64,000 nucleotides of DNA. Source: Candidatus Woesearchaeota archaeon (lineage in GTDB: Archaea; Nanobdellota; Nanobdellia; Woesearchaeales; GW2011-AR4). Below are positions 1-61,307 of this stretch, in pieces. Position 1 is the stretch's first letter. Each line of letters starts with the position of its first letter. The stretch is taken from NCBI GenBank assembly GCA_016177615.1, contig JACOUX010000006.1, positions 30,131 through 94,130 of the forward strand, given 5' to 3'. The notes beneath the pieces were generated by a model. That model did not search any database. It worked only from the letters and a program-made list of their open reading frames with translations, and was not told the origin of the DNA. The position numbers and the translations under genes were made by a program.

Positions 1-3000
1 TCCAGCTCCCAGTCATCTGGAATTCCGTCTCCGTCTGTGTCTTTAGCGCCTGCTGCCTCTTCGCTGTCAGGAATGCCGTTGCAATTCACATCATTGTCTG
101 CGCATGTTTTGCATGTTGAGGAAACACATTTTAAGTCGCTGTCGCAGTCATTATTCCTGATGCATGCCTTACCCTCCAGGCATTTTTCCGGGCATAATCC
201 TCCGCAGTCTATATCTGACTCGCTTGAGCTCAATTTGCCGTCAGAGCACGTTTCGGGAACTTGGCAATATCCAAGGCTGCAGTAAAAGCTTGCGCAATCG
301 CTGTTCTGGGTGCATTTCTTGTCAATCTGGCATTTTGCAGAGCATTGGCCTCCGCAGTCTACATCAGGCTCAAGCTGGTTCTTTATCCCGTCGCCGCATG
401 TAGGCTCTTTGCACAAGTTGTTATGGCAGAATTTGCTCCTGCAATCTGAATTGGTGCTGCAGGCAGAATTCAATTCGCATTCTCCCCTGTCCCTGCAGTT
501 TACTCCTGTTGAATTTGTTGCGCAATTTTGAGTTCTTATCCTGCAATTCCTGCAGTTAAGGGTTCCGCTTATGAAGTTGCTGCTGTAGCTGGTGCAGCTG
601 GTGCTTAGATTGCCAAAATTATTCCCATCACATTCCTCTCCTGCGTCTATAAGCCCATTGCCGCATTTTTCTGCTTCCTGACATGATTGCGTATCAAGCT
701 TGCAGGAGCTGGTACATGCTATCTCTCCTGTTCTGAAAAACACAGAATACGCAGAGCAGCTTTTATTCAATGCCCCGAAATTGTTGCCGTCGCATTCTTC
801 ACTTGGGTCTATGAGCCCGTTGCCGCATTTGTCAATCGGGTTGCATGAGCTTGTGTCAATGGCGCAATTTTTGCACTTCAGCTGGCCGCTGCTGAAACTG
901 CTGTAGTCTTTGCAGTCCTGTATACTTCCAAACTTATCATTATCACATGTTTCTCCAACATTAATTATATTGTTGCCGCATGAGCCTGCGCCTCCAAAGC
1001 AAGTGCCGGTATCGAGCTTGCAGCTGCTGTCGCATTTTAAGGTTCCGCCGCTGAAAGTCTCTGAAGAATACTGCTGGCACTGCCCGTTTAATGGACCGAG
1101 ATTGGTTCCATCACACTGCTCTCCAGGATCGATGATTCCGTTGCCGCATTTTTGCTTTGGCACGCATTTAGAGGTGTCCAAAAAGCACCCTGGAGTGCAG
1201 CCCACAGCGCCAGATGAAAAGTTCAGGTCCGAGCAGCTGCTTATTAAACCAAAAACATTGGTGTCGCAATGCTCCCCTGTATTTATCACCTTGTCTCCGC
1301 AATGCGGCTGCTCTGTGCATTTTGTTTTGTCGAGCTTGCATCCTGAACATCCAAGATCCCCTCCAATATAATTTGGGAAAAATGTGCATGTATTGATTGT
1401 GTCGCCAAAAACAGGACCTTTGTCATCGCAAAGCTCTCCAGAATCTATCTTGGCATTGCCGCATGGCGATGGCTGGTCGCATTGCGAAAAGTCAAACTGG
1501 CAGTCTGTTGATTTGCATTTCAAAGTTCCTCCTGCATAATTGAAGGATTTGCAGTTCTTGCTGTCGAGATTTGACCCGTCGCATTGCTCTCCTGCATTGA
1601 TTGCTCCATCTCCGCATCTTGGAGTGGTTGTGCAGTCGGCATAGTTAAATGTGCAGTCCCCTTTGCATGCAATCTGTCCAGCAGTATAGCTATCAAACAT
1701 TGAACATGTTTTGCCGTCGAGATTTGCCTTGTCGCATTGCTCGTTTACATCAGCATTATTCGGTTTCTGAACTATTGAATCTCCGCACCGTGGCTTATTT
1801 TCATCAGGAATGCATGCGCTAGTGTCATAAATGCAGCTTGTTGTACATTTCAATTCCCCTGAAAGGTAGCCAAGAGATTTGCAAGTGTTTCCTTTCAAGT
1901 CGGTTTTATCACATTCTTCTATGTTTTGATTTATTGTGCCATCTTGGCATGTTGGCGGATTAATTGGAGTGCATTTAGAATAATCGAAAGTGCAATCGCT
2001 CCTGCATCCAAGGTCGCCTCCGTTATATGCATCAAAAGAGGTGCATGTTTTGCTGTCAAGATTTGCCTTGTCGCATTGCTCGTTTACATCAGCATTATTC
2101 GGTTTCTGAACTATTGAATCTCCGCACCGTGGCTTATTTTCATCAGGAATGCATGCGCTAATATCATAAATACAGCCTGTGCATTTTAAGTTCCCTGAAC
2201 TGGATTTGTAACCAAATGACTGGCATGTTTTTCCCTGTAAATCGGGATCATCGCAATCTTCATTTAGCTGATTTTTAATTCCGTCCCCACATTTTGCTGT
2301 TTTCGCCTGGCAGCTTGTCGTGTTGATTTTGCATCCAGAACAAAGCAGGTCTCCGCTTATGAGGCTTGTGCTGTAGTTTATGCATGTTCCGCTGAATAAA
2401 CCAAATTTGTTGCCGTCGCAAGTTTCCCCTAATGCAGTGTCTATAACACCGTCTCCGCAGAAGTTTGGAGTGGCACATCCTGATGTGTTGAGCTTGCAGT
2501 TTATGCAGCTTAGCGAGCCGCTTGTGAAAGACCTGCTAAAGTTTGTGCATATTCCATTAAGCTTTCCGAAATTGTTGCCGTCGCATTCTTCACTTGGGTC
2601 TATAAATCCGTTGCCGCACGTCGGGCTTGGCCTGCAGCTTGTTGTGTCTAATTTGCAGTCAGAACTGCAGCTTATTGCCCCGCTTTCGAAATATTGGCTG
2701 TAATCAATGCATCTTGTTGTAAGGCTTCCGAGATTTGTCCCGTCGCATTCCTCGCTCGGGTCTATGAGCCCATTGTTGCACAGCGGCTTTGGAGTGCATT
2801 TTGCTGTATCAAGCCCGCAATTTTTGCAGCTTATATTGCCGCCCTGGAATCCAAGATCTGCGCAGCTGTCTATGACGCCGTAAAATGGCGAGTCGCAAGA
2901 TTCTCCTGGATTTATGAATTTGCCGTCGCATGCTCCAGAGGCTCCGGAGCAGCTGCTCGTATCAAGCTTGCAGCCATTGCATCTCATGCTGCCTCCTGTA

Positions 3001-6000
3001 AAGAAATTCGGATATGCCTCTTTGCAATTTGTAGTTGGCAGCCCAAGATTATTGCCGTCGCATTCTTCTCCTGCGTCTATGATGCTGTTTCCGCATAAAG
3101 CCCTTGGCTTGCATTGGGATGTATCCAGATAGCAATTTTGCCCGCATGCCAGTTGTCCAGATGCGAAGCCAAGATCAGTGCATAGTTTTGCAGCCCCGAA
3201 AAGATTTCCTTTTGTGTCGCAATGCTCACCTGAGTCAAGCTTTCCGTCCCCGCAATATGCAGGTGAAATGCAGTTTGACGTATCTGGAAGGCAGCTGTTG
3301 CGATTGCATCCTAATCTTCCTCCGATGAAGTTTGAATAAGAGGTACATTTATTTATAGGCCCGAAAACAATGGTTCCTGCGTCCGGATCGCAAAGCTCAT
3401 TTGTGTCAAGCCTTCCGTTTCCGCAAGGCAATGTTGTGTCGCATAGTGAAATGTCCACAGTTATGCCGTCGCTTGCTTTTGGCTGGCTTTCTATGCCTGC
3501 AAAATTCTTTGCCTTGACGCTGAATGTATATCTGGAATTGTCCTCTAAATTAAGGTTCTCGACCCAAAACCATTGGTTCCCTATGCCTGCTGCAATCTCC
3601 ACAAAGTCTTTAAGCAGCTGGCTTCCTTTAAATAAAGAGTAGAAATAGCTCCTTACATTAGACTCGTTGTCCTCTGCCAAAAATTTTACCCTTAGCTTGT
3701 CTGTGTTACATGTCTTGTCCGGCATTGCAAGCGTGCTTGTGTCATTTACAAAAAGCATTGCAGGAGCAGTTGTGTCAATCACAAAATTTATTGAGGTGCT
3801 TGCTGTTTCTCCTGTTGCGCTATTGCACTCTATGTTAAATGAGTATTTTCCCACATTTAACGTTAGCTCCTTCCTATGCAAATATGCTGCAGGGCCCATC
3901 ACATTTCCTGTGCTTGAAGAGGCCGCGTCTGAATAAGTGCATATTGCTCTCTTGTTTGTTTCAAGCGATATGACTGCTGTGGTTGTATTGAACAAACTTC
4001 CTGTATGGGACATGATTTTTAATGCCGCATTAACATCTACACTTACTGTAACTCCCTTTGTATCCGACTCAAGGCCTGAGCGGCTTTGGCACGCGACAAA
4101 GTAAGATACGCTGTTTCGGTTCTGGAGCGTGACTTCCTGCCTGTTTATTTCCCTAAAGTTATTGTCGTCAAAGCCGTCAAATTTATTCTCCATTGAGCTG
4201 AAAATCCTTTGGCTTGTGCTGTATTTGCAAACAGAAGGCTTATCTGTTTCAGCAGTCAATGTAGTAATAAATGGCTCTTCGGAAATTGGGTTTGGAAATG
4301 CTGTTAACTGGCTTATTTTTGGCTTTGCTGAATCCACGCTCAAGTCAAACGAATTTGATGAAATCCCCCTCCTGTCCTTGCATTTGACATAGAGCTTGTG
4401 GGTTCTTGAGTCTCCTGGCTGTATCCTGTTAAAATTTAAAATATTATGCAGCGTGGATCCTGTGTTTGTGAATCTCGCCATAGAAGCATAATTAAATTCA
4501 TTGTCAAAGCTGTACCTGCACTCTGCATCATTATCTGTTTCGACAGCTATTTCAAATGAATAGGATGTTGCTGCGCCGTTTCTCGGCTTTACAAGCTTTA
4601 TGGTTGTTGGGTTTGCATCAACGGTGAACAAAGACCTGCCGGTAACGCTGTTTCCTGCATAGTCTGCGGCTTCGGCAACAAGATTTTTATGGCCGTCAGA
4701 GAGGTTAACTGCTGCAGAAAATATCTTGTTGTCTGTTGTGTTAAAAATCCTTTTTATGTCCTGCCCGTCCAAAATTATGGATCCGAGAATAACTTCCTCG
4801 TTGAAAGACATGCGGATTTGCACTTTGGAAGAGTCATTTATGACTGCGTTATTTTCGGGAATAAGCGTGATTGTTGGCGCAGCTGTATCTATGACGATTG
4901 CAACAGCATAAACTGCATCCATCATGATGTTTTTTTCGTTTTTGGCATTGAACTCAAGCAAATATTCGCCGTCGCGGAGCAGTTCCGGAACCTGCAGGAT
5001 TGATTGTGTGCTCAATTGGGGGCTGCTCTGCAAATCAATTATTTTGCTTTTGTCCTTGGCAGATAGCTTTACAGAAAGCATAGTTGCAGGCTCGAAAAAC
5101 CTGATTGATATTGCTGGCCTTGGGTTGCTTGTGTAGATCTTACCTAGAACTTTTTGGCTTCCGATTATATCGACGGAAAATACTTTCGGACCAGCAGTAT
5201 TGCTGTATGCGTCAATAGGAATTATTTTGACTTTGCCAAGGTTCTTGGACGGGTCTTGGGAGTAATACCTGATGGTGTTGCGGCCTTCCCTGAATGACAA
5301 AAACCTGCTACCAGTTGTTGCGTCAAAAGCGTTTAGGTTGCTTATTATCACTGATCTTCCTGCCGTGAACGAGTCATAAGGAAGGTTATTGCACGGCTCC
5401 ACGCATAAAAAAGTAAGGTAATCTGCAGATGTCCTTAAAAATGAAGATCCATTGAAGCTTATCTTGTCGAGAACCTGTATGTTCAGACTGTCGTATATTC
5501 CCTTGGAGTTTCTGCCTGCCGTTATTGTTGTGTTTGGAGCAAAGTAATCGCTCTCACATTCCCTGCTGTCACAATCCGGAGCATCATCCCCATCAGCATT
5601 TTTTGCGCATCCGTTTCCGAAATTCTCGCAGACCTTTATGCCGCATACATCATTTGACTGGGATACTACGTGATTATTTTCATCAAGAATCACCTGGTTG
5701 TTACACTGGCTGGTGTCATAATCCATGCACACCAAATTATTGCAGCTTGCAGACTTTCCATTGCTGTAATAGCATTTGAATGCCCCTTCTGAAAGCGCAT
5801 CTGATTTTTCTTTTGTGCACAAGTCAAATATTTCATTGTAAGAGCGCAGGTTTTTCAGCGTTTCTGTTCCTTTTCTGTCGCACCACTTGCAGTTATAATC
5901 TTTTGTGCTCACACATGCCCCGATGCCAAATTGCCCAATTAGGGGCAGGGGCTTCCATACGCAATTTCTCAGCGCACAGTTGTCTGTGTTGCATGCACCT

Positions 6001-7298
6001 TCTGTTTTATAGTCATAGCATTCCATTGAAGGGTTGCAGTTGAAGCATGCATTCACAATTGTATAAGATCTATCATAAAAGCAGTATTTCTGGTTTCCGT
6101 CATCATATTTTTCGCATTCCTGCTTTGTGGTAAACACCCCAGTAGGGTCTTTTGCATTAATTGAGCAGTCTTCCTTATTTACACATCTTGGCTGCTGGCC
6201 GGTTGGCTTTAATGGAAGGCAAACCTGGTTTGGGGTGCATGCCAGTTGAGGGCCTTTAAGCCTGTTAATCTCGTCGCAGGCAAACGCCTTGTTGAACTTT
6301 TCCCTGTATTTGGCTACTACCTTGAGTGCAAAATCCCCTGAGAACTCATTTGGAAAATTGCTTACAAGATAGCTTTTGTACTGCTCATAAGTAGCTCTCT
6401 GGATGCAGAAAGGGCTATTGGAGGTTATTCCCAAGCACTCAATGTTTCCAAGGCTTGCTGTTTTTGAGATTGTTGGTGTTGCTGACTGTGGGGCATAATG
6501 CACCTTTATCTGATAAGTGTAGACATTATCAAACAATAAGTCGCTTGAAGAGTCCTCGAATTTGGCTTCCGAGGTTGTTGCTACAAGGGCAAAATTTGTG
6601 CAACTGCTTCCCCTGCACCTCAATACATCATAAGACTTTGCATTCTGGCTGCATTCATCTCTCCATTCAAGCCTTAATTTCTGCTCTCCTCTGGCAGGGT
6701 TGATGATTAATTCTGAAAGCTTAGGGGTGTATGCTGCATTATTGCAGTTTGCCGGAGGAGTCTTGCATGTCCCGCCTGACTCAACTTTGGTGCTGGTGGT
6801 TGCGCATGCAGTATCAAGAGAGTCGGCGCACCCGTTCCTGTCATTATCGATGCCGTCATTGCATTGAGGAATTGCGCATTTTTCATTGCATTCCTGTATA
6901 GAGCTTACTCCACCATAGAATGTAGTTCCAGGGTTTTTACACTGGAATTCAAGCACATTCACATTGCTGCCGATTGCAGAGCAGCAGCATCCCCTTGCTT
7001 GGCATTCACTGACTCCATCGCATGCCTGCCTGTCCTTGTAAAAAAGCTGGATGCACTCCTGCTGGTCTTTTGGCCCATTAGGCCAGTTATAGTATTCAGG
7101 GCTCTCTTCCTTGTTTGGGCAGCACAAGGATGCTTCCAGCAGGATTTCTGAATAGCATTTCACAGCTGTCGGTGCGCCTGGGTTGATGCAGCACCCTCGC
7201 CCTGCAAGCTGCGCATAGGCAGGACTGATGCTAAGTAATGCCATTATGCACAGCAATGAGTACAATAAAATTGCTTTTTTTGTTTTTTGAATCCCCAT
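1..7298 (-). CDS. Giant secreted cysteine-rich surface protein (>=2432 aa in window; C-terminus lies beyond window position 1). Signal peptide, Cys-rich N-domain, Cys-free beta-rich middle (~5500-3400), then a tandem array of cysteine-rich repeats
   Basis: Minus-strand frame from ATG at 7296-7298 (preceded by in-frame TAA) was hand-translated for 7298->~5200 and is in frame again at ~2660 and at 1-60 (codon phase identical). N-terminus MGIQKTKKAILLYSLLCIMALLSISPAYA|QLAG is a classic signal peptide. Region ~3400-1 encodes repeated units with CG(N/D)GxIDxxEECD(G)NN motifs (e.g. TCGNGFIDPSEECDGNNFG at ~2600), resembling Myxococcus-type cysteine-rich repeats, and a DTDGDGIPDD Ca-binding-like motif at the window edge. 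All + strand ORFs in the track between 37 and 7151 are antisense artefacts of this gene. Confidence 0.7.
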   Translation of the reverse strand, partial: MGIQKTKKAILLYSLLCIMALLSISPAYAQLAGRGCCINPGAPTAVKCYSEILLEASLCCPNKEESPEYYNWPNGPKDQQECIQLFYKDRQACDGVSECQARGCCCSAIGSNVNVLEFQCKNPGTTFYGGVSSIQECNEKCAIPQCNDGIDNDRNGCADSLDTACATTSTKVESGGTCKTPPANCNNAAYTPKLSELIINPARGEQKLRLEWRDECSQNAKSYDVLRCRGSSCTNFALVATTSEAKFEDSSSDLLFDNVYTYQIKVHYAPQSATPTISKTASLGNIECLGITSNSPFCIQRATYEQYKSYLVSNFPNEFSGDFALKVVAKYREKFNKAFACDEINRLKGPQLACTPNQVCLPLKPTGQQPRCVNKEDCSINAKDPTGVFTTKQECEKYDDGNQKYCFYDRSYTIVNACFNCNPSMECYDYKTEGACNTDNCALRNCVWKPLPLIGQFGIGACVSTKDYNCKWCDRKGTETLKNLRSYNEIFDLCTKEKSDALSEGAFKCYYSNGKSASCNNLVCMDYDTSQCNNQVILDENNHVVSQSNDVCGIKVCENFGNGCAKNADGDDAPDCDSRECESDYFAPNTTITAGRNSKGIYDSLNIQVLDKISFNGSSFLRTSADYLTFLCVEPCNNLPYDSFTAGRSVIISNLNAFDATTGSRFLSFREGRNTIRYYSQDPSKNLGKVKIIPIDAYSNTAGPKVFSVDIIGSQKVLGKIYTSNPRPAISIRFFEPATMLSVKLSAKDKSKIIDLQSSPQLSTQSILQVPELLRDGEYLLEFNAKNEKNIMMDAVYAVAIVIDTAAPTITLIPENNAVINDSSKVQIRMSFNEEVILGSIILDGQDIKRIFNTTDNKIFSAAVNLSDGHKNLVAEAADYAGNSVTGRSLFTVDANPTTIKLVKPRNGAATSYSFEIAVETDNDAECRYSFDNEFNYASMARFTNTGSTLHNILNFNRIQPGDSRTHKLYVKCKDRRGISSNSFDLSVDSAKPKISQLTAFPNPISEEPFITTLTAETDKPSVCKYSTSQRIFSSMENKFDGFDDNNFREINRQEVTLQNRNSVSYFVACQSRSGLESDTKGVTVSVDVNAALKIMSHTGSLFNTTTAVISLETNKRAICTYSDAASSSTGNVMGPAAYLHRKELTLNVGKYSFNIECNSATGETASTSINFVIDTTAPAMLFVNDTSTLAMPDKTCNTDKLRVKFLAEDNESNVRSYFYSLFKGSQLLKDFVEIAAGIGNQWFWVENLNLEDNSRYTFSVKAKNFAGIESQPKASDGITVDISLCDTTLPCGNGRLDTNELCDPDAGTIVFGPINKCTSYSNFIGGRLGCNRNSCLPDTSNCISPAYCGDGKLDSGEHCDTKGNLFGAAKLCTDLGFASGQLACGQNCYLDTSQCKPRALCGNSIIDAGEECDGNNLGLPTTNCKEAYPNFFTGGSMRCNGCKLDTSSCSGASGACDGKFINPGESCDSPFYGVIDSCADLGFQGGNISCKNCGLDTAKCTPKPLCNNGLIDPSEECDGTNLGSLTTRCIDYSQYFESGAISCSSDCKLDTTSCRPSPTCGNGFIDPSEECDGNNFGKLNGICTNFSRSFTSGSLSCINCKLNTSGCATPNFCGDGVIDTALGETCDGNKFGLFSGTCINYSTSLISGDLLCSGCKINTTSCQAKTAKCGDGIKNQLNEDCDDPDLQGKTCQSFGYKSSSGNLKCTGCIYDISACIPDENKPRCGDSIVQKPNNADVNEQCDKANLDSKTCTSFDAYNGGDLGCRSDCTFDYSKCTPINPPTCQDGTINQNIEECDKTDLKGNTCKSLGYLSGELKCTTSCIYDTSACIPDENKPRCGDSIVQKPNNADVNEQCDKANLDGKTCSMFDSYTAGQIACKGDCTFNYADCTTTPRCGDGAINAGEQCDGSNLDSKNCKSFNYAGGTLKCKSTDCQFDFSQCDQPSPCGNAKIDSGELCDDKGPVFGDTINTCTFFPNYIGGDLGCSGCKLDKTKCTEQPHCGDKVINTGEHCDTNVFGLISSCSDLNFSSGAVGCTPGCFLDTSKCVPKQKCGNGIIDPGEQCDGTNLGPLNGQCQQYSSETFSGGTLKCDSSCKLDTGTCFGGAGSCGNNIINVGETCDNDKFGSIQDCKDYSSFSSGQLKCKNCAIDTSSCNPIDKCGNGLIDPSEECDGNNFGALNKSCSAYSVFFRTGEIACTSSCKLDTQSCQEAEKCGNGLIDAGEECDGNNFGNLSTSCTSYSSNFISGTLNCRNCRIRTQNCATNSTGVNCRDRGECELNSACSTNSDCRSKFCHNNLCKEPTCGDGIKNQLEPDVDCGGQCSAKCQIDKKCTQNSDCASFYCSLGYCQVPETCSDGKLSSSESDIDCGGLCPEKCLEGKACIRNNDCDSDLKCVSSTCKTCADNDVNCNGIPDSEEAAGAKDTDGDGIPDDWEL
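1720..2160 (-). repeat. Intragenic tandem duplication: 102-bp perfect direct repeat (1720-1821 and 2059-2160), period 339 bp (= 113 codons), within the repeat array of the giant surface protein
   Basis: Exact identity of 'agatttgccttgtcgcattgctcgtttacatcagcattattcggtttctgaactattgaatctccgcaccgtggcttattttcatcaggaatgcatgcgcta' at both positions; flanks similar but diverged. Confidence 0.9.
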
Positions 7299-7311
7299 TT
7301 TTATTTTTGAC

Positions 7312-8547
7312 TCATTTTCTTTTGACAAATATTTCCTGCCAGTCCTTCAGCGCCCCATCAGCAACTTCGACCCTGAAAGTAATGGATGGCTGGTCTAATA
7401 TGGCAGATTCGGGATTGCCCGGCAATTGCGCATATACACTATATGAAAGCTGGTCTTCATCCGGGTCCTCTGCATTTTTCTGGTAGCCCTGCAGCAGCTT
7501 GCTTTCATCTATCAGTTCATCTGCATCAAATTCTACAACATTGTTTATTATATAGTAAAGTGCCGGCGCCCTATTTTTTCTGGCAAAGATATATTGGAAT
7601 TGCCTGCCGTTCACCAGCGATTTTTGGTCAGTGATTATTATTATATCTGCTTTCGCCTTTGTTTCATCATTGTATGGGTATTCATTTTTGACTACGGCCA
7701 CGGTCATAAAATCTCTATTTTCTGCATTGCCCATATCAAATTTTATGCTTCTGGTGTCATTCCTGATTAAATTTTTCGCAAAAAAATAGATTTCCTTCAG
7801 CCTTACATTTACATTTGTAGAGAATTCGCTTAACTGTGATGACTCTTTTGTTTTTGCATCAGTTATTGTTATAGGAATCTTTGACTTGACGCTTATATCG
7901 CCGCTGCCTATGATCACTGTTGTATTGGGCTTTTTCATTGCTACGTTTATGCCCTGCTCCTTAAATATGTTGAAATTTGCGCATGCTGCCATGTTGTTGT
8001 TGATGAAAGATTCCATCTGGTCCTGAAAAGAATGAGGGCCTTCAGACGAGTTTATTGGGGGAAGATAGCTGATGCCGAAATAGCCTTCAAACTTTTCATT
8101 CGCATATCTTTCAGTATATGGGAATATTTTCCATGGATAATCCCCATTGTTTGTGTTTGAAGAATATGATATGTCGTCATAAGCTGCTGCAAAGCTTGGG
8201 GGCATGATGTTGTAGGAAACATTGTAGTTGTTGTATTTTACAAATAACATGCCCTCGCTTGTTTTAGGAGGAGCAAGGGTTACCCCTCCCTGTCCTTTGT
8301 ATATAACTCCGCCTTGGTTTCCTAATAAAATTAAAGAGTCTTTTGTAAGCTTGTCAAGGCATTTTACTACAAATTCCTTTATAGGACTTGTTTCAAGCGC
8401 AGTCTCCTGCACTTTTTTTATGCTCTGCTGGGTATTTTTTTTAATGGCGGACTTGGAGAGGTACAAGACAAGGCTTACTACTATGAATAATAAAAGTCCT
8501 ATAATAAGCAGCATTGTAACCTGCGATCTTGCAGATGCTTTGCTCAT
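7312..8547 (-). CDS. N-terminally membrane-anchored extracytoplasmic protein (~411 aa), unknown function; middle gene of the surface-protein operon
   Basis: ORF 7312..8580; the preferred start MSKASARSQVTMLLIIGLLLFIVVSLVLYL (8547) directly abuts the stop of the upstream 843-aa gene. Single N-terminal TM helix followed by Asn/Ser/Tyr-rich soluble domain. 13-nt gap to the giant gene downstream. Confidence 0.55.
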   Translation of the reverse strand: MSKASARSQVTMLLIIGLLLFIVVSLVLYLSKSAIKKNTQQSIKKVQETALETSPIKEFVVKCLDKLTKDSLILLGNQGGVIYKGQGGVTLAPPKTSEGMLFVKYNNYNVSYNIMPPSFAAAYDDISYSSNTNNGDYPWKIFPYTERYANEKFEGYFGISYLPPINSSEGPHSFQDQMESFINNNMAACANFNIFKEQGINVAMKKPNTTVIIGSGDISVKSKIPITITDAKTKESSQLSEFSTNVNVRLKEIYFFAKNLIRNDTRSIKFDMGNAENRDFMTVAVVKNEYPYNDETKAKADIIIITDQKSLVNGRQFQYIFARKNRAPALYYIINNVVEFDADELIDESKLLQGYQKNAEDPDEDQLSYSVYAQLPGNPESAILDQPSITFRVEVADGALKDWQEIFVKRK

Positions 8548-11075
8548 TCCAGCCTTAGCTTCGAGGTTAAGTCCTGCCATATTGAATCAGGGTCTATGCT
8601 TGTAAACTCGCTGCCCTGCACCAAAACGTAATAATCATTGCCTGATTTCCTGCACGAAATTCCTGATGAAGATCCTTTTGATTGTGAGTACTGGCTCATG
8701 AAGCTGCATATATCAAATCCTATTCCTTTGTATTCAAGCGATGCACTTTTTGTGTTTGGGCTTTTTCCCTCTATGAATGCGCTGATGGTTTGCGTCCCTT
8801 GCTTTGCCAGATAAAGCCTGTCAAATTTCTTGATGCCCTTGAGAAAGTTGGACGAATAAGAATTGTCTATTGGGGGTGTTATCAATCTCCTTATGGAATC
8901 TATTATTCCTCTTATTATGCTGTTTAATGCCTCTGCCAGCGTACCCTGTGGAGGAACCTGAATTGCACTCGAGCTGTAAATGAGGCTTTTTAGCCTTTTG
9001 TTGTACCATACTTTCCTTGAAGAATCACATGCATGATATTGGCCATCGTCAATCAATCCGCTGCTGCAGCCTGTGACTCCAAATATGTTGAGGCTTCCTC
9101 CAGCAGCGCTTTCCAAATTCCTGTTTATGGAAGTTGCTGCAATTATCCTTGCTCCTGACTTAATTATGCAGAAATTGTTTGTCTGCAGGCTTGAAAATGT
9201 GTCCGCTACCGCGCCGCCAGATTCAGCCACAATCTCAAGGGTGTTAAGGACGTTTTCCCTTGTATCGCAGAACAATATAAAGTCATTGCCTTTCATCTCA
9301 AGCATCTTTAACGCCAAAAGCTTTGTCCTTGACGACCAGTTTCCTTTATCGCAGTAATTGTCAATTGTATAGTTTCCAGAGGGAATACATTTGTCTGTGG
9401 CCTGCGCATCCGGATTGACAAGACATTCTGTATCCGAAGGGCAAAACCCTGTCTTTTCGCCATCAGGAGTGTATTTGATTCCCAATTCTATCCATTGGCC
9501 GTCAATGCACCTTAAATTTGTATCTCCAAACGGCTTTGCATTTGGGCTGTTTCTTTGGCTGTCAATGCATACTGAGCCGTTCCAGCATTGAGTTGCAGAG
9601 CAGCATTCTGAGTAAATGGGAACATTTGAAGATGGTGCAGAGCTGAAGTATGTCTTGTCCGTTCCAAATGTCTGGTTCCACCATCCCCTTGGAGAGCAGT
9701 AGTATCTTTTGTCTGGATCATTAAAGCATGCATCGTGGTCCCTAACTAAAACAGAGCCAGTATGTGAATCTGTTTTTCCCAGTATTTTTATTTTGTCTTC
9801 CTGCGGCTTTATAGTAATCTTGCACCCATGGAATGCGCCTCCAAAATTTATTACAGAGAAGTTTGTTCCATTCACGAAATCAATGCTCCTTACAAATGAG
9901 CTGTTCCAGCAGCCTCCGATTGTTCCTGGATCATTGTAAGATTCTGTTTTTTCTGTGCATCCTTCTGCATCTTCAATCATGCAGCCATTGAATTCAGCAG
10001 GGCATCCAGAAGGCGTTATTTGGGCATATTGCAGCGTGCATATCTTGTCATCTGCCTCGCTGCAGCATTTTGTTCCAGTCCATTTTAATCCTGCCTTTTC
10101 ACATGCTGATTGGCCATCAGATGTGTCCAAGTCAGTTGCAAATTTTTTGTTTGACTTGCAGTAATAAGTGTTTGAATTTTCATCGCCTGGGCCTGAAACT
10201 ACATTACCTGTAATTAAATAGTTTCCGGGCACATCCTCATTCTCAAAATTACTTGGTTTTGTCAACTGTCCTGTTGTCAGCCTTTTTCCAGCCTCATTCG
10301 AGGACTTGCAGTCATTTGCTGAATCGCCGCAGCATTCTACTATAGAGCCTTTTCCCCTTCCTATGCATAAGTATTCCCTACCAGATACTAGTTTGTTCCA
10401 GAAATTGCCATCGCAGAGCTGCCAATCCCTTCCGTCGAACAGGTACTCAGCTGCCTTGCATTGGACATATTTTATCTCTCCTATTTTTCCTTCAGATATT
10501 TTAGGCGGCTGGCAGATTGGAACGCACTCAACATTATCTCCTGTTGCCTTGCACTCGTAGTCTTCATCGCATTTTACTTTTGTAATTTCATAATTGCTCC
10601 TGATGACCCCCCATAGATTATAATCATCTAATGATTTGCAATCGTTTTTGGCATAGACCGTGATGTCTATTGGTGATCCCCTAGAAAATGGAATTACTGT
10701 ATTCGGACTATCTGACTTGCCGCAGTTTTTGCCAGTATGATCTGGTCCACAATTACAGGCGCAATAATCCCAATTCCATATATTTTGAGTCAGTGTGCTG
10801 ATTCTGCCTTCATCGTCCACATTAACACTCCTGAGCTTGACTGAAACAGTGCATTCATCTGTCTGTATCTGGTCTGTTTTTGTGCAGGTCTGGCCGCAGC
10901 CGCCTCCACTGAATCTTATTTCGCAGTCTATTTGCTTGCTTGAGTCAGTTTCCAATACTCCGTGCTCTATGCTTTGCGCATAAACACCGAATGAAAAGAA
11001 TACTACAAGAGCTAAAAATGACAATAACAGACAAAATCTCCCGTGATTAATATTTCCTCTTTTTTTTCTTCTCAT
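8544..11075 (-). CDS. Secreted cysteine-rich protein (843 aa), unknown function
   Basis: ORF track. N-terminus MRRKKRGNINHGRFCLLLSFLALVVFFSFGVYAQS is a signal peptide with AQS cleavage site. >60 Cys spread through the extracellular region. Confidence 0.7.
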   Translation of the reverse strand: MRRKKRGNINHGRFCLLLSFLALVVFFSFGVYAQSIEHGVLETDSSKQIDCEIRFSGGGCGQTCTKTDQIQTDECTVSVKLRSVNVDDEGRISTLTQNIWNWDYCACNCGPDHTGKNCGKSDSPNTVIPFSRGSPIDITVYAKNDCKSLDDYNLWGVIRSNYEITKVKCDEDYECKATGDNVECVPICQPPKISEGKIGEIKYVQCKAAEYLFDGRDWQLCDGNFWNKLVSGREYLCIGRGKGSIVECCGDSANDCKSSNEAGKRLTTGQLTKPSNFENEDVPGNYLITGNVVSGPGDENSNTYYCKSNKKFATDLDTSDGQSACEKAGLKWTGTKCCSEADDKICTLQYAQITPSGCPAEFNGCMIEDAEGCTEKTESYNDPGTIGGCWNSSFVRSIDFVNGTNFSVINFGGAFHGCKITIKPQEDKIKILGKTDSHTGSVLVRDHDACFNDPDKRYYCSPRGWWNQTFGTDKTYFSSAPSSNVPIYSECCSATQCWNGSVCIDSQRNSPNAKPFGDTNLRCIDGQWIELGIKYTPDGEKTGFCPSDTECLVNPDAQATDKCIPSGNYTIDNYCDKGNWSSRTKLLALKMLEMKGNDFILFCDTRENVLNTLEIVAESGGAVADTFSSLQTNNFCIIKSGARIIAATSINRNLESAAGGSLNIFGVTGCSSGLIDDGQYHACDSSRKVWYNKRLKSLIYSSSAIQVPPQGTLAEALNSIIRGIIDSIRRLITPPIDNSYSSNFLKGIKKFDRLYLAKQGTQTISAFIEGKSPNTKSASLEYKGIGFDICSFMSQYSQSKGSSSGISCRKSGNDYYVLVQGSEFTSIDPDSIWQDLTSKLRLE

Positions 11076-11212
11076 TTTTTTGCCTTGTCTCTCTCAAGCT
11101 TTTCCTTTAACGCTTCGTTTATGTACTCGATTAAGGTCTTGTTCTGGAGAACGCAGTTTAGCTTTGCCTTCTTGTGGGCATCTGAATCTACTTCTATGTT
11201 TATCCTAACCAT
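11072..11212 (-). CDS. Small ribbon-helix-helix (CopG/antitoxin-like) DNA-binding protein, 46 aa; candidate regulator of the surface-protein operon
   Basis: Hand-translated minus strand: MVRINIEVDSDAHKKAKLNCVLQNKTLIEYINEALKEKLERDKAKK; beta-strand then two helices is typical of RHH proteins. Its TGA stop overlaps the ATG of the 843-aa gene (ATGA), indicating translational coupling. Absent from the ORF track because it is shorter than 60 aa. Confidence 0.45.
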   Translation of the reverse strand: MVRINIEVDSDAHKKAKLNCVLQNKTLIEYINEALKEKLERDKAKK

Positions 11213-11345
11213 GCTCTGAATAACTTAAATTACTTATTTAGCTTATTTTAGTTAGCAAACTTAATGTATTTAATATACTAAAAGATATATTATCATTTAT
11301 TTAAGTTAGTAGTATTTATAGTTTGTTATTTTTGCTGTCTGCGGC

Positions 11346-12769: not shown

Positions 12770-15700
12770 ATGGAAATCAACGTTTTGGAGCAGATAAAGA
12801 GGTTTCAGGATTTTATAGACGGCAACTACTATAAGTCATTGCTGGAGAATGCAAGAAAAGGGGATAGGTTTCTTATTATAGATTTTATAGAGCTTTCAAA
12901 GTACGATCCTGACCTTGCTACTCAGCTTCTTGATGCTCCTGAAGAAACTATAAAGGCAGTGGAAAAGGCGATCGAGCAGTTTGATATTGAGGGAATTTCC
13001 AGATTCAGGATAAGGTTCCATAACCTGCCACAGGGCCAGCACACAAAGATCAGGGATATAAGAAGCAAGCATATATCGCGGCTTGTATATGTCGAAGGGC
13101 TGATAAGGCAAAAATCTGATGTAAGGCCTCAGGTTACCTCGGCAAAATTTGAATGCCCTGCCTGCGGAAATATCATAAATGTCCTCCAGCTTGAAGGAAC
13201 TTTCAAAGAGCCGGCCAGGTGCGGATGCGGGAGAAAGGGAAAGTTTGTGGAGATTGGGAAAGAGCTTGTTGATGCGCAGGGCATTGTGATGGAAGAGGTG
13301 TCTGAAAATCTTGAAGGCGGAGAGCAGCCAAAGCGCATAAGCGTACTGCTGACAGACGATCTTGTAAGCCCGATCAGCGAAAAAAGAACAGCTCCGGGAA
13401 GCAAGGTTGGGATTATTGGAATTGTAAAGGAAGTCCCAATAATCTCCAGAACAGGTGCCAAGTCTACAAAATTTGATTTGATGATCGAGGCAAACTACGT
13501 CAAGCCTACCCAGGACACGTTTTATGAGGTCATGGTAAGCGATGAAGAGGAAAAGCAAATTCTGGAAATAGCTAACGACCCCAGGGGGTACGAAAAGCTG
13601 ATCAATTCCATTGCCCCCTCTATTTATGGCTACGAGAAGATAAAAGAAGCCCTGCTATTGCAGCTTATGGGAGGCGTAAGGAAAGTCAGGGCCGATAATG
13701 TGATCAGCAGAGGGGACTGCCACATTTTGCTAGTCGGTGATCCTGGAAGCGGAAAAAGCGCATTGCTCAAAAGAATAACCACTTTTGCCCCAAAAGGGAG
13801 ATATGTATCGGGCAAAGGGATTTCAGGGGCCGGAATAACTGCCGCTGTTGTTCGCGACGAATTTCTCAAGGGATGGGCTCTTGAAGCCGGAGCAATGGTT
13901 CTCAGCAGCGACGGGGTTGTTTGTGTTGACGAGCTTGACAAGATGAGCAATGAAGACAGGGCAGCGATGCATGAGAGCCTGGAAAACCAAAGCTATCACT
14001 ATAATACAGAGATAATGCTGTCTGATGGAAGCACCTTTAAGATTGGCAAATTTGTGGAAGAACTAATTGATAATAATAGGGACGAAGTTATTTTTGGAAA
14101 AAATTGTGAAATATTGCCTGTAAATAACGTAGAGCTTCTAACAACAGATTTTGAGAAAATTTTCCCTACAAAAGCAACAATGGTTAGTAAGCATAAAGCG
14201 CCAGATTACTTTGTCAAAATAACATATTCTAATGGAAGATCCATTATGGTAACTCCAGAACATCCCGTATATGTTTTCTACAATGGCAAGATAAGTGAAA
14301 CTCCAGCAGAGCAAGTAAAACAGGGTTTATTGGCTCCTGCACCAAGAAAATTGCCTACTAAAAGTAAAAATGTGGAATTTATTCCTAGTGGGCTTAATCA
14401 TTTCAACAATAAGGAAATTGAGTTTCCCTCAAGCCTTAACAACGGTCTTGCTAGGCTTCTTGGTTATATAACAACCGAGGGTTATGCTTATTTCAGCACA
14501 CAAAACAGATATGCCGAGGTTGGTATCTCCAACACGAATCCTTTTATAATTGATGAGATGTCGCTTTTATTTAAAGAAACTTTTAAAACTACAGTAAATA
14601 TCAATGTTCAATTTGCTAATAGTAGATCAAAGGCAAAAAAAGACATTGCAACAGTAAGAATTTGCTCTAAGCCATTTTATAATTATATATTCTCAAATTT
14701 TCGGGGAAGTGCAAATGGTGCTAAAAACAAGTACATCAATAATAGTCTGAGATGTGCTGATAAAGAGTTTCAATTGGAGTTTCTGAGAACCGCTTTTAAA
14801 GGTGATGGTTTTGTTGATAGCAGAAGATTTGGTTATTCTACTTCGTCTCTTGAATTGGCAAAGGGCTATCAGGATTTATTGCTTCAGAACAATATCGGCA
14901 GTCGAATAGACACAGAAAAAAGAAATTCTACAGAATATTATAAGGTAGCAATTACTGGTACAGAAGGTGCTGGCTTGTTTCTCAATAACATAGCCGAGGA
15001 AGATGATCATAGAATAAAGAGATTAAGCGAATTTTATAATGCAAGCAAAAACAAGAAAAATGAAAGAGATATTCTGCCAAGGGAAATATTGATTGAAGTT
15101 AATTTGCTTCTAAAAAGCTTTAATTTGAGTGATGGATATTTTATTAATAACATAAATAGGGGATTTAACGCGCATAAAGATGTAGTTTTAGGTTATATAA
15201 GAAAAATTGAAGATAAGCTAAAAGAATGTGATAAAGCTGTCCAACTCAACAATCCTAAAAAACTTAGGAGGTTACTGAATATTGAAGTAAATTTCCTCGC
15301 CAGAAATGTCAATGTTTCTGCTGGGACAATATACAATATAGAGAAGAAAAATAATTCTGCCAGGTATCATGAGTTAGTCAGAACCATAAAAAAACTTGGC
15401 AACGAGAAGATACAATTTACCAAATCTAAGGTAAATTATATTTTGAAACTTATTAATTCTGAAATTAGATTTCTTTACGTCAAAAAGGTAGAGAAAATAA
15501 AAAATGATGGGATGGAATGGGTTTATGATGTTACCGTTGAGCCTACAAGGACTTTTATAAGCGAAGGGTTGGTTTTACATAATACAATCAGCATTTCAAA
15601 GGCAAACATACAGGCGACATTAATTGCAAGGACTACTGTTCTCGCTGCTGCAAACCCGAAATTCGGAAGGTTTGATCCTTATGCTATAATAGCCGACCAG

Positions 15701-16384
15701 ATTGATCTTCCTCCTACCTTAATCAACAGGTTCGACCTCATCTTTCCCATAAAGGACTTGCCTGAAGAGACAAGAGATGAGAAAATGGCAAAGCATATCC
15801 TTACCCTTCACCAAAGCCCTGAGGTAAATGAGCCTGAGGTATCAACAGAGCTCTTAAGAAAATATGTTGCTTATGCGAGGCAGAAAGTGTCCCCAAAGCT
15901 TACTGATGGCGCTCTTGAAGAGATAAAAGATTTCTATTTAAAGATGCGAAAAGGAGGAGGCGAAGGGGGTATAAGGTCTGTTCCTATATCTGCAAGGCAG
16001 CTGGAAGCACTAGTCAGGCTGAGCGAAGCTTCTGCAAAAGCAAGGCTGGACGACAGGGTTACCAGAAAGGATGCAAAAAAAGCCATAGAGCTTCTTGATT
16101 ACTGCCTTATGCAGGTCGGATTTGACAAAGAGACTGGAAAGGTGGATATTGACAGGATAGCCACTGGTGTTGGAGCGTCGCAAAGAAGCCACATAATGGT
16201 TTTAAGGGATATAATAATCGAGCTTGAGTCCAAGCTTGGAAAATCTGTTCCAATGGAAGATGTCATGGCAGAAGCAAAGAGCCGCGGCTTGGATGAGGAT
16301 AAGGTTGAAGAAGCCCTTGAGAGGCTGAAGCGCTCGGGAGATGTTTATGAGCCTAAGAGAGGCCATGTAAGCAAATTGCCTTAA
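12770..16384 (+). CDS. mcm: MCM replicative helicase containing one intein
   Basis: C4 zinc finger CPACGN...CGCG, Walker A GDPGSGKS, Walker B VCVDELDKM, arginine finger SARQLEALVRLSEA, C-terminal wH. Host sequence ...HESLENQ | TISISKANIQATL is interrupted by a 531-aa insertion. Confidence 0.9.
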   Translation: MEINVLEQIKRFQDFIDGNYYKSLLENARKGDRFLIIDFIELSKYDPDLATQLLDAPEETIKAVEKAIEQFDIEGISRFRIRFHNLPQGQHTKIRDIRSKHISRLVYVEGLIRQKSDVRPQVTSAKFECPACGNIINVLQLEGTFKEPARCGCGRKGKFVEIGKELVDAQGIVMEEVSENLEGGEQPKRISVLLTDDLVSPISEKRTAPGSKVGIIGIVKEVPIISRTGAKSTKFDLMIEANYVKPTQDTFYEVMVSDEEEKQILEIANDPRGYEKLINSIAPSIYGYEKIKEALLLQLMGGVRKVRADNVISRGDCHILLVGDPGSGKSALLKRITTFAPKGRYVSGKGISGAGITAAVVRDEFLKGWALEAGAMVLSSDGVVCVDELDKMSNEDRAAMHESLENQSYHYNTEIMLSDGSTFKIGKFVEELIDNNRDEVIFGKNCEILPVNNVELLTTDFEKIFPTKATMVSKHKAPDYFVKITYSNGRSIMVTPEHPVYVFYNGKISETPAEQVKQGLLAPAPRKLPTKSKNVEFIPSGLNHFNNKEIEFPSSLNNGLARLLGYITTEGYAYFSTQNRYAEVGISNTNPFIIDEMSLLFKETFKTTVNINVQFANSRSKAKKDIATVRICSKPFYNYIFSNFRGSANGAKNKYINNSLRCADKEFQLEFLRTAFKGDGFVDSRRFGYSTSSLELAKGYQDLLLQNNIGSRIDTEKRNSTEYYKVAITGTEGAGLFLNNIAEEDDHRIKRLSEFYNASKNKKNERDILPREILIEVNLLLKSFNLSDGYFINNINRGFNAHKDVVLGYIRKIEDKLKECDKAVQLNNPKKLRRLLNIEVNFLARNVNVSAGTIYNIEKKNNSARYHELVRTIKKLGNEKIQFTKSKVNYILKLINSEIRFLYVKKVEKIKNDGMEWVYDVTVEPTRTFISEGLVLHNTISISKANIQATLIARTTVLAAANPKFGRFDPYAIIADQIDLPPTLINRFDLIFPIKDLPEETRDEKMAKHILTLHQSPEVNEPEVSTELLRKYVAYARQKVSPKLTDGALEEIKDFYLKMRKGGGEGGIRSVPISARQLEALVRLSEASAKARLDDRVTRKDAKKAIELLDYCLMQVGFDKETGKVDIDRIATGVGASQRSHIMVLRDIIIELESKLGKSVPMEDVMAEAKSRGLDEDKVEEALERLKRSGDVYEPKRGHVSKLP
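13991..15583 (+). mobile_element. Intein (531 aa) with LAGLIDADG homing-endonuclease domain inside the MCM ATPase domain
   Basis: Insertion between Walker B and sensor 1. It begins with Ser (SYHYNTEIM...) and ends ...GLVLHN followed by +1 Thr. Two LAGLIDADG-like motifs (LARLLGYITTEGYAY and LEFLRTAFKGDGFVD). Confidence 0.8.
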
Positions 16385-28166: not shown

Positions 28167-28230
28167 TTCTGTAAGTGCCTAATCAGTTTAAGAAAATTAA
28201 AAGTGGAGATTATTCCCCTATGATAATAAA

Positions 28231-28372
28231 GTGGACAGCTTTTCTGTTTTCCCGTGCGGAGCACAGTACACACAGAAACGGAGGCTTGCTTAACTTCCGT
28301 GAACCCGCTAAAATGCGGACGCACTTTACTTTCGGGATGGGAACGGGTGAACCAAGCCCCTATGGCCGTCCA
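28231..28372 (-). rRNA. rrf: 5S ribosomal RNA (stand-alone gene), apparently with a ~29-nt hairpin insertion in loop C
   Basis: Minus strand reads UUGGACGGCCAUAGGGGCUUGGUUCACCCGUUCCCAUCCCGAA[AGUAAAGUGCGUCCGCAUUUUAGCGGGUU]CACGGAAGUUAAGCAAGCCUCCGUUUCUG...GUACUGUGCUCCGCACGGGAAAACAGAAAAGCUGUCCAC. This aligns with archaeal 5S (e.g. GGCGGCCAUAGCGGUGGGGUUACUCCCGUACCCAUCCCGAACACGGAAGAUAAGCCCACC...). Helix I (GGACGGCC/GGCUGUCC) and helix II (GGGGCUUG/CAAGCCUC) are complementary. GC-rich relative to surrounding intergenic DNA. Confidence 0.75.
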
Positions 28373-28476
28373 AGCTAAAAGGGAAGAAAACCCGGTTTAA
28401 AAATGTTGTGGAATTTTTTTGTTTTGCCTGAAAAGATTTTTAAAGCGAAGCTTATAATTTGCTCTTGGTGATTTAA

Positions 28477-29386: not shown

Positions 29387-30094
29387 ATGAATAAAATTTC
29401 TGAATTAGGAATAGAGAAAGTTACCCCTGATGAACTTATAGGCCCATTGAATGACATTGAGAAGAAGTTTGCTCCACCTTACCTTTTTCTTAAAGGAAAT
29501 CGTAAACTTATAGATAATCATCCTAGAGTCTCAATTATTGGTACTAGGCATCCTAGTGAGGGCGGAATAAATAACACTAGTAAATTAACGAAGTTTCTTC
29601 TTAAGAATGAAGTGGTTATTGTAAGTGGTCTTGCCCTAGGTATAGATACCGTGGCACATAAAACTGCGATTGAAAATGGTGGTAGAACCATAGCTGTGTT
29701 AGGTACGCCTCTTGATAGGTATTACCCAAAACAGAATAGTGATTTGCAGGATGAAATTGCGAGAGACAATTTAGTAATCTCACAATTTTCCTTAGGGTCA
29801 GCCATACAAAGGAAGAACTTCCCTCTACGTAATAGAACAATGGCATTGCTTTCTCATGTTTCAATTATTGTTGAAGCAGGGGAGGGTAGTGGAACAATTC
29901 ACCAAGGATGGGAAGCACTTCGTTTGGGTCGACCATTATTTCTTATTGAAGATATAATTAAGAATAAGAATCTAAAATGGCCACATAAATTAATTGGATA
30001 TGGTGCTAAAATTCTTCCAATTTCTCAAGCCAAATTTGTGCTTGAATCTTTACCAGTCCCCATGCTAGAGGCGGGGAACTATGCTACTTTCTGA
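29387..30094 (+). CDS. DprA/Smf-like Rossmann-fold (SLOG superfamily) protein; Rossmann core only, no SAM or wH domains
   Basis: RVSIIGTRHPSEGG...VVIVSGLALGIDTVAHKTAIENGGRTIAVLGTPLDRYYPKQN...NFPLRNRTMALLSHVSIIVEAGEGSGT matches the DprA Rossmann motifs (GxRxxS, SGxAxGID..AH, TIAVLG.G.D..YP, RNR, VVEA...SG). Confidence 0.8.
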   Translation: MNKISELGIEKVTPDELIGPLNDIEKKFAPPYLFLKGNRKLIDNHPRVSIIGTRHPSEGGINNTSKLTKFLLKNEVVIVSGLALGIDTVAHKTAIENGGRTIAVLGTPLDRYYPKQNSDLQDEIARDNLVISQFSLGSAIQRKNFPLRNRTMALLSHVSIIVEAGEGSGTIHQGWEALRLGRPLFLIEDIIKNKNLKWPHKLIGYGAKILPISQAKFVLESLPVPMLEAGNYATF

Positions 30095-36449: not shown

Positions 36450-36510
36450 TTCATTTCCCTTTCAATTGCTTAAAAACAAGAGGTGGCTAGGAAGAGTTCT
36501 CTATTAAGGT

Positions 36511-39768: not shown

Positions 39769-39777
39769 GCAGGAGCC

Positions 39778-40824: not shown

Positions 40825-40890
40825 GTTATTCACTAAACCTTTAATCCTTATCAAAAGTTTTAAATATCATATCCCCAATTTTGCATAATT

Positions 40891-41970: not shown

Positions 41971-42046
41971 AACAAAAACAGAAAACTTTATATAATCGAA
42001 AAAAAATTTCAATTTGATTGAAATTTTTTATAATTAAAGAGGCAAA

Positions 42047-60087: not shown

Positions 60088-60093
60088 TTAAAT

Positions 60094-60905: not shown

Positions 60906-61307
60906 ATGATGTCTCACAAATCCAAAGGCTCAAACGCGGAAAGAGAATTATTGCACATGTTCTGGAGCAGAGGATGGCCTTGTTTGCGATCTGCAGGCTC
61001 AGGTTCAATGAAATATCCGGGACCTGATTTGCTGGCAGGGAGCAAGGACAAGACAAGAAGAGTGGCAATAGAATGCAAGACTACAAAAACAAACAAAGTC
61101 TATCTAAACGAGCATGATATAATCCAGCTCAAAGAATTCTCAGCCATCTTTGATGCAAGGCCCTGGTTTGCTGTTAAATTTGCAGGAAAAGAGTGGCTTT
61201 TCATCATGATAGAAGATTTGGAGAAAACGCCGACAGGATATGCAGTGGACCAGAAGAAAGCTGAGTTAAGAGGAATATCTTTTAATGAATTAATAGAATA
61301 TAAATAA
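60906..61307 (+). CDS. hjc: Holliday junction resolvase Hjc
   Basis: KGSNAERELLHMFWSRGWPCLRSAGSG...PDLLAG...RRVAIECKTTK matches Hjc catalytic motifs (E..D..EcK). Confidence 0.85.
   Translation: MMSHKSKGSNAERELLHMFWSRGWPCLRSAGSGSMKYPGPDLLAGSKDKTRRVAIECKTTKTNKVYLNEHDIIQLKEFSAIFDARPWFAVKFAGKEWLFIMIEDLEKTPTGYAVDQKKAELRGISFNELIEYK

Follow-up and report, generated by a model that had tools for sequence, protein, structure and literature searches.

Archaeal type IV pilus loci encode several minor pilins, one large protein with a signal peptide and one large S-layer-like protein with a C-terminal transmembrane (TM) segment, all of them rich in cysteine, and the genes for the ATPase and TadC are often found away from archaeal pilin loci (Makarova, Koonin and Albers, 2016, PMC4858521). 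For DPANN archaea, it has been suggested that the signal-peptide proteins of "dark matter" islands are divergent pilins (PMC6393860). The subject of the present analysis is a gene cluster at positions 1-11345 of a 64-kb stretch of DNA (the window) from contig JACOUX010000006.1 of Candidatus Woesearchaeota archaeon. This region is the 5′ half of a conserved cell-surface cluster of Woesearchaeota and Nanoarchaeota. The best reading, to which we assign a probability of roughly 60%, is that the cluster supplies an archaeal type IV filament with its pilins and accessory module, and that it additionally encodes two large adhesion proteins rich in disulfides. As a category, the archaeal type IV filament locus is already known and presents no conceptual surprise; the literature searched supplies the general framework only, with no description of this specific cluster.

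Within the window, the cluster is represented by four co-directional open reading frames (ORFs) on the minus strand, in the interval 1-11212 (Table 1): a short gene for a ribbon-helix-helix (RHH)-like protein, the genes for proteins A and B, and the gene for the giant protein G. All four ORFs listed in a sequence-only reading of this DNA are present, with no frameshifts or internal stops and no sign of pseudogenisation. The unit is as tightly packed as that reading described it, with an ATGA overlap between the RHH-like gene and A, a second one between A and B, and the start of G at position 7298 placed 13 nt past B; given the two overlaps, co-translation is probable. The frame of G stays open to base 3 of the window (2,432 codons), and the giant gene can be completed from the NCBI record HYS31_00550 (P0163), a protein of 2,660 aa that is 100% identical to G across the entire in-window part. 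NCBI labels both A (HYS31_00560) and G as hypothetical proteins of Candidatus Woesearchaeota archaeon. The neighbouring genes, which encode RNase P p30, TBP, an intein-containing MCM, eIF2-beta, the large and small subunits of PolD, and Cdc6, are archaeal. These adjoining replication and translation genes and the NCBI naming of the proteins place the DNA in a DPANN archaeon, in agreement with the small-genome archaeon presumed earlier, and together with the intact ORFs they confirm the observation as such.

In relatives, the cluster extends beyond these four genes. Thirty-five species-level loci were gathered by homologue look-ups and by scanning GTDB with each species represented by a single genome; they are labelled Woesearchaeota or Nanoarchaeia, or come from default-labelled metagenome-assembled genomes, and several metagenome contigs were available in addition. 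The window genome is no GTDB species representative. The gene order (p30)-A-B-G-d1-d2-d3-d4 is collinear in 35 of 35 loci, with d1 to d4 encoding proteins of ~159, ~333, ~158 and ~156 aa, respectively, and often with two or three proteins of ~90 aa (d5/d6) downstream of d4. A is present in 32 of these loci, G in 33, d1 in 26, d2 and d3 in 25 each, d4 in 21 and the small pilins in 14, most absences being contig ends. Because the same order recurs in 35 species-level loci, the arrangement is not a product of chance. Homologous operons thus exist in related genomes, whereas the earlier delimitation to four genes fails, since the orthologous loci run on with d1-d4, the small pilins and more pilin-like genes. 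The closest relatives, L043 (whose G is 54% identical) and L015, have the order RHH-A-B-G-d1-d2-d3(-d4). In another locus, L044 (GCA_016185945.1, 8078-25100), downstream of d4 come the genes of three small proteins and no fewer than eight others, whose products have pilin-like N-termini; these genes beyond d4, at least 11 in number, yield no Pfam matches, and the locus reads as a very long island of pilin "dark matter".

The feature that joins B to the d proteins is located at the N-terminus. Translation of B from its first ATG (8580) produces a 37-nt overlap with A; stop codons interrupt this upstream stretch in the orthologues, which share a start at the equivalent of M12 (8547); with that start, B and the stop codon of A form the second ATGA overlap. 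The N-terminus of B, MSKASARS/QVTMLLIIGLLLFIVVSLVLYL (here and below a slash marks the cut, in this case the predicted S19/Q20), displays a short charged segment, a basic residue at -2, a small residue at -1 and a hydrophobic helix of ~20 residues, which is the layout of a class III (prepilin-type) signal. The pattern [KR]-[SGA]-Q-[IV]-T followed by a hydrophobic helix is kept in all 35 orthologues of B, where the junctions are KS/Q, RG/Q, KA/Q and RA/Q, and where distant members start with MRGQITIF.., MKAQVTMF.. or MRAQVTLF... The signals of the d proteins are K[GSA]/Q[LI]Y[GS]Q-IFIYILT... in d1, KK[GA]/FE[IM]QFNW-IFVL... in d2, K[KN][AS]/QIQ..E-TIAVLF... in d3, [KR]K[AGS]/Q[MT]E-ILGLAIV... 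in d4 and KK[GAS]/QSISIN-TIIIAAIALAVLVVLF... in d5/d6.

Six otherwise unrelated families (B, d1, d2, d3, d4 and d5/d6) therefore share a basic stretch, a G, A or S, a Q or F and a hydrophobic helix of ~20 residues. When the six are compared by hhalign, likeness is found almost only in this N-terminal module, with probabilities of 85.6% for d3/d4, 60.5% for d1/B (B residues 12-49) and 54% for d2/d5. Type IV pilin-like proteins are recognised by precisely such a combination, a common N-terminal module mounted on globular parts without mutual relationship, and the class III signal that B shares with d1-d6 makes a type IV filament module the best reading of the cluster. The same signal contradicts the view of B as a plain membrane anchor. 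The sequence-only reading had also described the encoded proteins as disulfide-rich, with signal peptides or N-terminal anchors; this applies to A and G, which have Sec signals and are Cys-rich, but not to B, which contains 2 Cys only. In a structural model of B (pLDDT 85), the TM helix is followed by a linker, a second helix, alpha/beta domains and C-terminal beta-sandwiches, the last of which are cadherin/Ig-like and include an invariant DPDED motif. The d5/d6 proteins have predicted mature products of ~60 aa with a C-terminal CCC motif and resemble the very short major pilins of methanogens.

Comparison with described loci places the cluster nearest to archaeal type IV pilus loci such as those of Thermoproteales clades 4B/4G and of the Epd-type system 1 in methanogens (PMC4858521), which likewise combine minor pilins, a large protein with a signal peptide, interpreted as an adhesin or minor pilin, and a protein with a C-terminal TM segment with many cysteines. 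Unlike those loci, the present one yields no arCOG or Pfam pilin model and no DUF2341 (PilY-like) model; A, B and the head of G have no annotated relatives, G carries TIGR02232-type and TSP3 repeats, the site beside replication genes is conserved, and in one subclade an RHH gene has joined the operon. There is also a likeness to the tip sets of bacterial type IV pili and type II secretion systems (FimU-PilVWX-PilY1; GspH-I-J-K), which similarly contain four small-to-medium proteins of pilin-like type, among which one (here d2, with 333 aa) is roughly double the length of the rest. As in the PilY1 sets, a large non-pilin secreted protein is co-encoded, in which a conserved, putatively docking part is joined to a variable, putatively adhesive one.

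That protein, A, contains 47 Cys in its 843 aa, begins with a Sec-type signal peptide (aa 1-33, ...FSFGVYA/QS) and is without a membrane anchor. It is composed of a variable, beta-rich N-terminal head (aa ~34-290) and a conserved C-terminal module (aa ~290-843, nt 8547-10208). Homologues keep roughly aa 290-843 only, the N-terminal third being swapped for other modules by lineage. In the orthologues P0017 (L007 10001-13015), P0009, P0030, P0008 and P0039, a Hint domain (intein/hedgehog-type autoprocessing; aa ~28-180) directly follows the signal peptide, which suggests that these proteins cleave themselves and would in this way shed the N-terminal segment from the mature part. The head of P0027 consists of a Laminin_G_3/pentaxin lectin and a He_PIG Ig domain, and that of P0003 is a Stig1-like Cys module. 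A profile search covering 1.84 billion representative proteins places the A family at about 1,330 clusters at 50% identity, 872 of them at E <= 1e-30. In the 150 best matches listed, which measure ~250-2,739 aa and of which the shortest are fragments, the conserved module nearly always forms the very C-terminal end. The family has no Pfam match and no structural relative. A role for A as a PilY1-like tip adhesin was considered and rejected on fold; neither DUF2341 nor a C-terminal beta-propeller domain is found in A.

The second large protein, G, displays a more elaborate modular structure (Table 1). The identity of its head is 41-55% among the closer orthologous loci and falls to 22-35% for the distant clade, and no Pfam model matches it. 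The borders of the Ig-like modules are marked by a recurring [VI]D-x3-P motif, and this region produces partial Pfam matches to Big_13 (31.9 bits) and Big_3_3 (23.9 bits). In the stalk, the repeat consensus is C-G-[ND]-G-x-[IL]-[DN]-x-x-E-x-C-D ... C ... C-x2-3-C-x-[LF]-D-T-[ST]-x-C. The assignment of the CGNGxIDxxEECD repeat to the myxobacterial type is borne out by a score of 25.6 bits against TIGR02232 (myxo_disulf_rpt; cut-off 20.8) and by the six Cys conserved in each of the 18 units. The stalk thus shares the CGNGxxDxGEECD signature of the "Myxococcus cysteine-rich repeat" proteins but differs from them in that an archaeal type I membrane protein contains a six-Cys unit of ~54 aa 18 times over, and in that the block is dispensable in orthologues; Pfam DUF4215 was undetected at E <= 0.1. 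At the DNA level, the stalk includes a 339-nt duplication with 83% identity (1630-1841 / 1969-2180), and Tandem Repeats Finder detects no tandem array in G; because the repeats have diverged (60-83% DNA identity), hypervariable slippage is unlikely. Complete, uninterrupted orthologues of G measure 1,525-2,739 aa and contain 0-13 repeats by the strict pattern, the CGNG repeats of this family being a spacer of variable length that may be missing altogether.

Nearer the membrane, the Cys-knot-like modules follow the pattern C-x-DG-x2-N/S-x2-E-x-D-[VI]-DCGG-x-C..., and the first TSP3 Ca-binding repeat is DTDGDGIPDDWEL, which contains the DTDGDGIPDD motif. The calcium-binding character ascribed to this motif is supported by a TSP3_bac (PF18884) score of 56.1 bits, against a threshold of 25, on the full-length protein; the model is undetected on the truncated in-window G, since just the first repeat falls inside the window. 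The last 228 aa, beyond the window, comprise further TSP3 repeats, the sequence FPKS, one TM helix (KLKIILLILGILILASGFGYLGY) and a cytoplasmic tail of ~130 aa rich in K, E, R and P, an ending also found in the orthologues. The C-terminal TM helix and cytoplasmic tail indicate that G is a type I membrane protein with its head pointing away from the cell. In its size of more than 2,500 aa, its extender of Ig-like modules and repeats, its Ca motifs and its distal, putatively ligand-binding head, G is like the bacterial giant fibrillar adhesins of the SiiE and LapA/MpIBP type, from which it is distinguished by Sec export with a C-terminal TM anchor in place of type I secretion and by its wealth of disulfides; in contrast to the giant adhesins compared, no protease or nuclease domains were detected in G. 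Other DPANN archaea have giant surface proteins, such as SPEARE of Nanohaloarchaeum, and G is similar in layout.

The architecture of G, with its C-terminal TM helix, cytoplasmic tail and huge extracellular part, also lends itself to a different interpretation of the cluster, as a cell-envelope (S-layer-like) module. In this arrangement, G would be a membrane-anchored stalk or fibril and A its secreted partner or canopy, much as SlaB and SlaA or other S-layer anchors of archaea, with the pilin-like proteins as separate neighbours or scaffolds of what would be a housekeeping cluster and no device dedicated to adhesion. Such a role agrees with the presence of one cluster per locus, at a fixed site among MCM, TBP, RNase P p30 and PolD in nearly all relatives, and Makarova et al. 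(PMC4858521) themselves term the C-terminally anchored large protein in pilus loci "S-layer-like". However, neither A nor G matches an S-layer family in Pfam or NCBIfam, and a C-terminal TM anchor is a generic feature only. Stalks of 0-18 repeats and heads of A that are swapped between lineages are typical of adhesins under diversifying pressure and less so of proteins that form a lattice, and the collinearity with at least five pilin-like genes would be left unexplained, so that we regard an envelope module as rather unlikely.

Several observations nonetheless weigh against a filament. The Pfam-scanned ORFs of the window (all but a few) encode no assembly ATPase, TadC/FlaJ platform or prepilin peptidase, and a scan of the window and all fetched loci for the Walker-A motif found none. 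No pilin model of Pfam or NCBIfam reaches threshold for the cluster proteins: B matches none of the curated pilin and archaellin models, and the N-terminal matches of d3 to BasB (E 0.008) and of d5 to UpsA (0.03) and XpsI (0.18) are sub-threshold, so that pilin membership depends on the motif and not on hidden Markov models. The -1 residue of B in the window is Ser, which is non-canonical relative to G or A and which alternates with them among the orthologues of B. The d1-d6 proteins are known from relatives only, the window ending inside G. The fold of A is unlike that of PilY1, and A is not strictly tied to the cluster, as in L044 it lies outside, with p30 directly followed by B and with a homologue of A (P0006) encoded on another contig. 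Finally, co-transcription and the binding of RHH are predictions.

Part of this evidence bears on a further possibility, namely a membrane-anchored adhesion complex without a filament. Here the N-termini of B and d1-d4 would be uncleaved signal anchors, or would form a short, bindosome- or pseudopilus-like assembly, holding the ectodomains, A and G at the surface. The strict conservation of a basic -2, a small -1 and a Q or F at +1 in six unrelated families is difficult to reconcile with anchors of this kind; given the interchange of G, A and S among orthologues, it is what a peptidase recognition site would predict. The tandem ~90-aa small pilins downstream of the cluster, which are of the major-pilin type, also speak for a filament. 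An anchored complex would nevertheless accommodate the Ser found at -1 in many orthologues of B and d1, the lack of assembly machinery nearby, the cadherin/Ig-like ectodomain of B, in which no pilin head is recognisable, and the weak match of d3 to the bindosome protein BasB. On balance, we consider it improbable.

The remaining component of the window cluster is the RHH-like protein, in which a beta strand (MVRINIEVD...) is followed by two helices. Its matches to the Pfam models ParD (15.7 bits) and 56B_RHH (15.3 bits) are weak (E 0.02) and fall below the cut-offs of ~27 bits; there is also a weak precomputed match to RH3_dom, and the beta-alpha-alpha pattern is compatible with the assignment. 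Orthologues in L015 and L043, the latter also of 46 aa, are ~80-88% identical at the protein level (L015 88%), with synonymous differences in the DNA, whereas the proteins beside them are just ~45-54% identical. This difference in conservation identifies the RHH-like ORF as a real gene. It occurs in 1 of the 35 species loci plus L043 and is absent from the other 34, which makes it a subclade-specific regulatory add-on and not the defining regulator that it had been taken for. The 133-nt region upstream of the gene contains TATA-like boxes and, in the promoter, two CTAACTNNNNTAA repeats. The pattern CTAACT(N4)TAA has 2 matches in the window against 0.52 expected, although it was picked after the copies had been seen, and an alignment of the three upstream regions reveals a similar pair in L043 with equal spacing. 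The two repeats are candidate operators for RHH. A scan with sigma-70 promoter and terminator models gave counts at shuffle level, these models being uninformative for an archaeon. An operon of four genes, complete in itself, devoted to host interaction and under the defining control of an RHH repressor, is highly improbable even with the ATGA coupling of RHH to A, the paired repeats of the promoter and the purifying selection on RHH (88% aa identity, synonymous changes) in its favour, as the conserved unit reaches d1-d4 and beyond, RHH is nearly absent from the species loci and matches Pfam below threshold, and synteny contradicts it as a general description; it could survive only as a regulatory layer of one subclade.

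Under the type IV filament reading, the cluster might operate as follows. Transcription would start in the AT-rich region upstream of the RHH gene, and in this subclade RHH probably binds both CTAACT(N4)TAA repeats and thereby autoregulates; the ATGA overlaps RHH/A and A/B would couple translation. A and G, whose sequences begin with classical signal peptides, are expected to be exported by Sec and then to fold with many disulfides. A prepilin peptidase encoded elsewhere would cut B (at S19/Q20) and d1-d4 after the small residue, and by analogy with bacterial and archaeal minor pilins, B and d1-d4 may then form an initiation or tip complex, on which the small mature pilins d5/d6 could polymerise as filament subunits, again by analogy. 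A is likely to be a filament- or pilin-associated adhesin that would dock via its C-terminal module and present an exchangeable head. From the membrane outward, G displays TSP3 repeats, Cys-knot modules, the six-Cys stalk, Ig-like modules and the Cys-rich head, and could act as a long adhesive fibril, stabilised by Ca and disulfides, or as an S-layer-like partner of the filament.

The role of the cluster is likely attachment to partner or host cells or to surfaces. The adhesion or host-interaction function envisaged in the sequence-only reading is the most plausible one. Conceivably, though doubtfully, A, B, G and d1-d4 together represent an undescribed, DPANN-specific attachment organelle. 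Its type IV-derived filament would dock A at the minor-pilin tip through a new C-terminal adaptor fold of ~550 aa, with Hint domains accomplishing release or activation in some lineages, while G would serve in concert as a fibril of tunable length; such an organelle would be the main host-recognition device of Woesearchaeota, its variable heads defining the host range. The literature searched yielded no description of the families of A, B, the G head and d1-d4, of their fixed synteny beside the replication genes, of the CGNG stalk, of the Hint-bearing A or of the RHH add-on.

To our knowledge, no member of the Woesearchaeota has been cultured, and the attachment of ultra-small archaea to their partners is unexplained. 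The cluster offers candidate parts for this process in the form of a pilin set, a modular family of secreted putative adhesins (A) that carries no annotation, and a length-variable giant fibril, and a block of hypothetical proteins beside replication genes becomes annotatable as type IV filament components, which is useful both for the annotation of DPANN genomes and for the design of host-attachment experiments. Among the predictions are a cut at S19/Q20, a complex of B, d1-d4 and the C-terminal module of A, and a head of A that varies with the host.

Table 1. Positions of the cluster genes, the upstream elements and the segments of protein G in the window
Feature	Position	Strand	Description
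Direct repeats CTAACT(N4)TAA	11297-11309 and 11243-11255		54 nt apart; candidate RHH operators
AT-rich intergenic region between the RNase P p30 and RHH genes	11213..11345	-	Likely promoter
RHH-like gene	11072..11212	-	46 aa; ATGA overlap with the start of A
Protein A	8544..11075	-	843 aa, secreted, Cys-rich
Protein B	7312..8580	-	Probably 411 aa, starting at M12 (8547); 422 aa if read from the first ATG
Giant protein G	3..7298	-	First 2,432 of 2,660 aa; continues past the window start
G aa 1-640	5379..7298	-	Sec signal peptide aa 1-29 (...PAYA/Q) and conserved Cys-rich distal head (aa 31-640)
G aa ~641-1285	3444..5378	-	About seven Cys-poor beta-sandwich (bacterial Ig-like) modules of ~95 aa
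G aa 1292-2268	495..3425	-	18 tandem six-Cys repeats of ~54 aa (CGNGxIDxxEECD...); length-variable stalk
G aa 2269-2432	3..494	-	Three Cys-knot-like modules of ~45 aa and first TSP3 repeat; membrane-proximal part

Elsewhere in the window, there is a second cluster of surface-protein genes on the plus strand (35283-43078). Its products are a 388-aa protein that begins with a class III-like signal, MEKKA/QSGMNAAILVAIIAGLIVLYIVFL, a protein of 1,085 aa ending in an SLT lytic transglycosylase domain, a peptidoglycan-cleaving type of domain in an archaeon, and three paralogous lipoprotein-like proteins of ~350 aa with N-terminal ...C motifs and no Pfam match. From its domain content, this cluster may target bacterial cell walls. 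A DprA homologue (29387-30094, plus strand; DNA_processg_A, E 2.8e-55), the mediator of recombination in natural transformation, is a hint that DNA may be taken up, a process for which many organisms need type IV filaments.

Additional genes concern the processing of nucleic acids. The MCM gene (12770-16384, plus strand) encodes 1,204 aa, as compared with 672-691 aa in relatives' orthologues without an intein, the excess being due to an intein, equipped with a LAGLIDADG homing endonuclease, that interrupts the P-loop domain. A stand-alone 5S rRNA gene (58 bits) lies at 28230-28373 on the minus strand, and the whole window yielded no tRNA genes. A Cas4/PD-(D/E)XK nuclease-like gene is found at 44409-45299 (minus strand); among the scanned ORFs, its surroundings show neither a CRISPR array nor further cas genes. 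An N6/N4 DNA methyltransferase gene (59251-60678, plus strand; PF01555, E 4e-49) is followed by one for an HNH endonuclease-domain protein, the two forming a probable restriction-modification pair, and just downstream of them is a gene for an Hjc resolvase (60906-61307). Lastly, fused primases are reported for some DPANN archaea, and a 452-aa ORF on the minus strand (61946-63304), with weak matches to both PriS and PriL primase domains, looks like such a protein.

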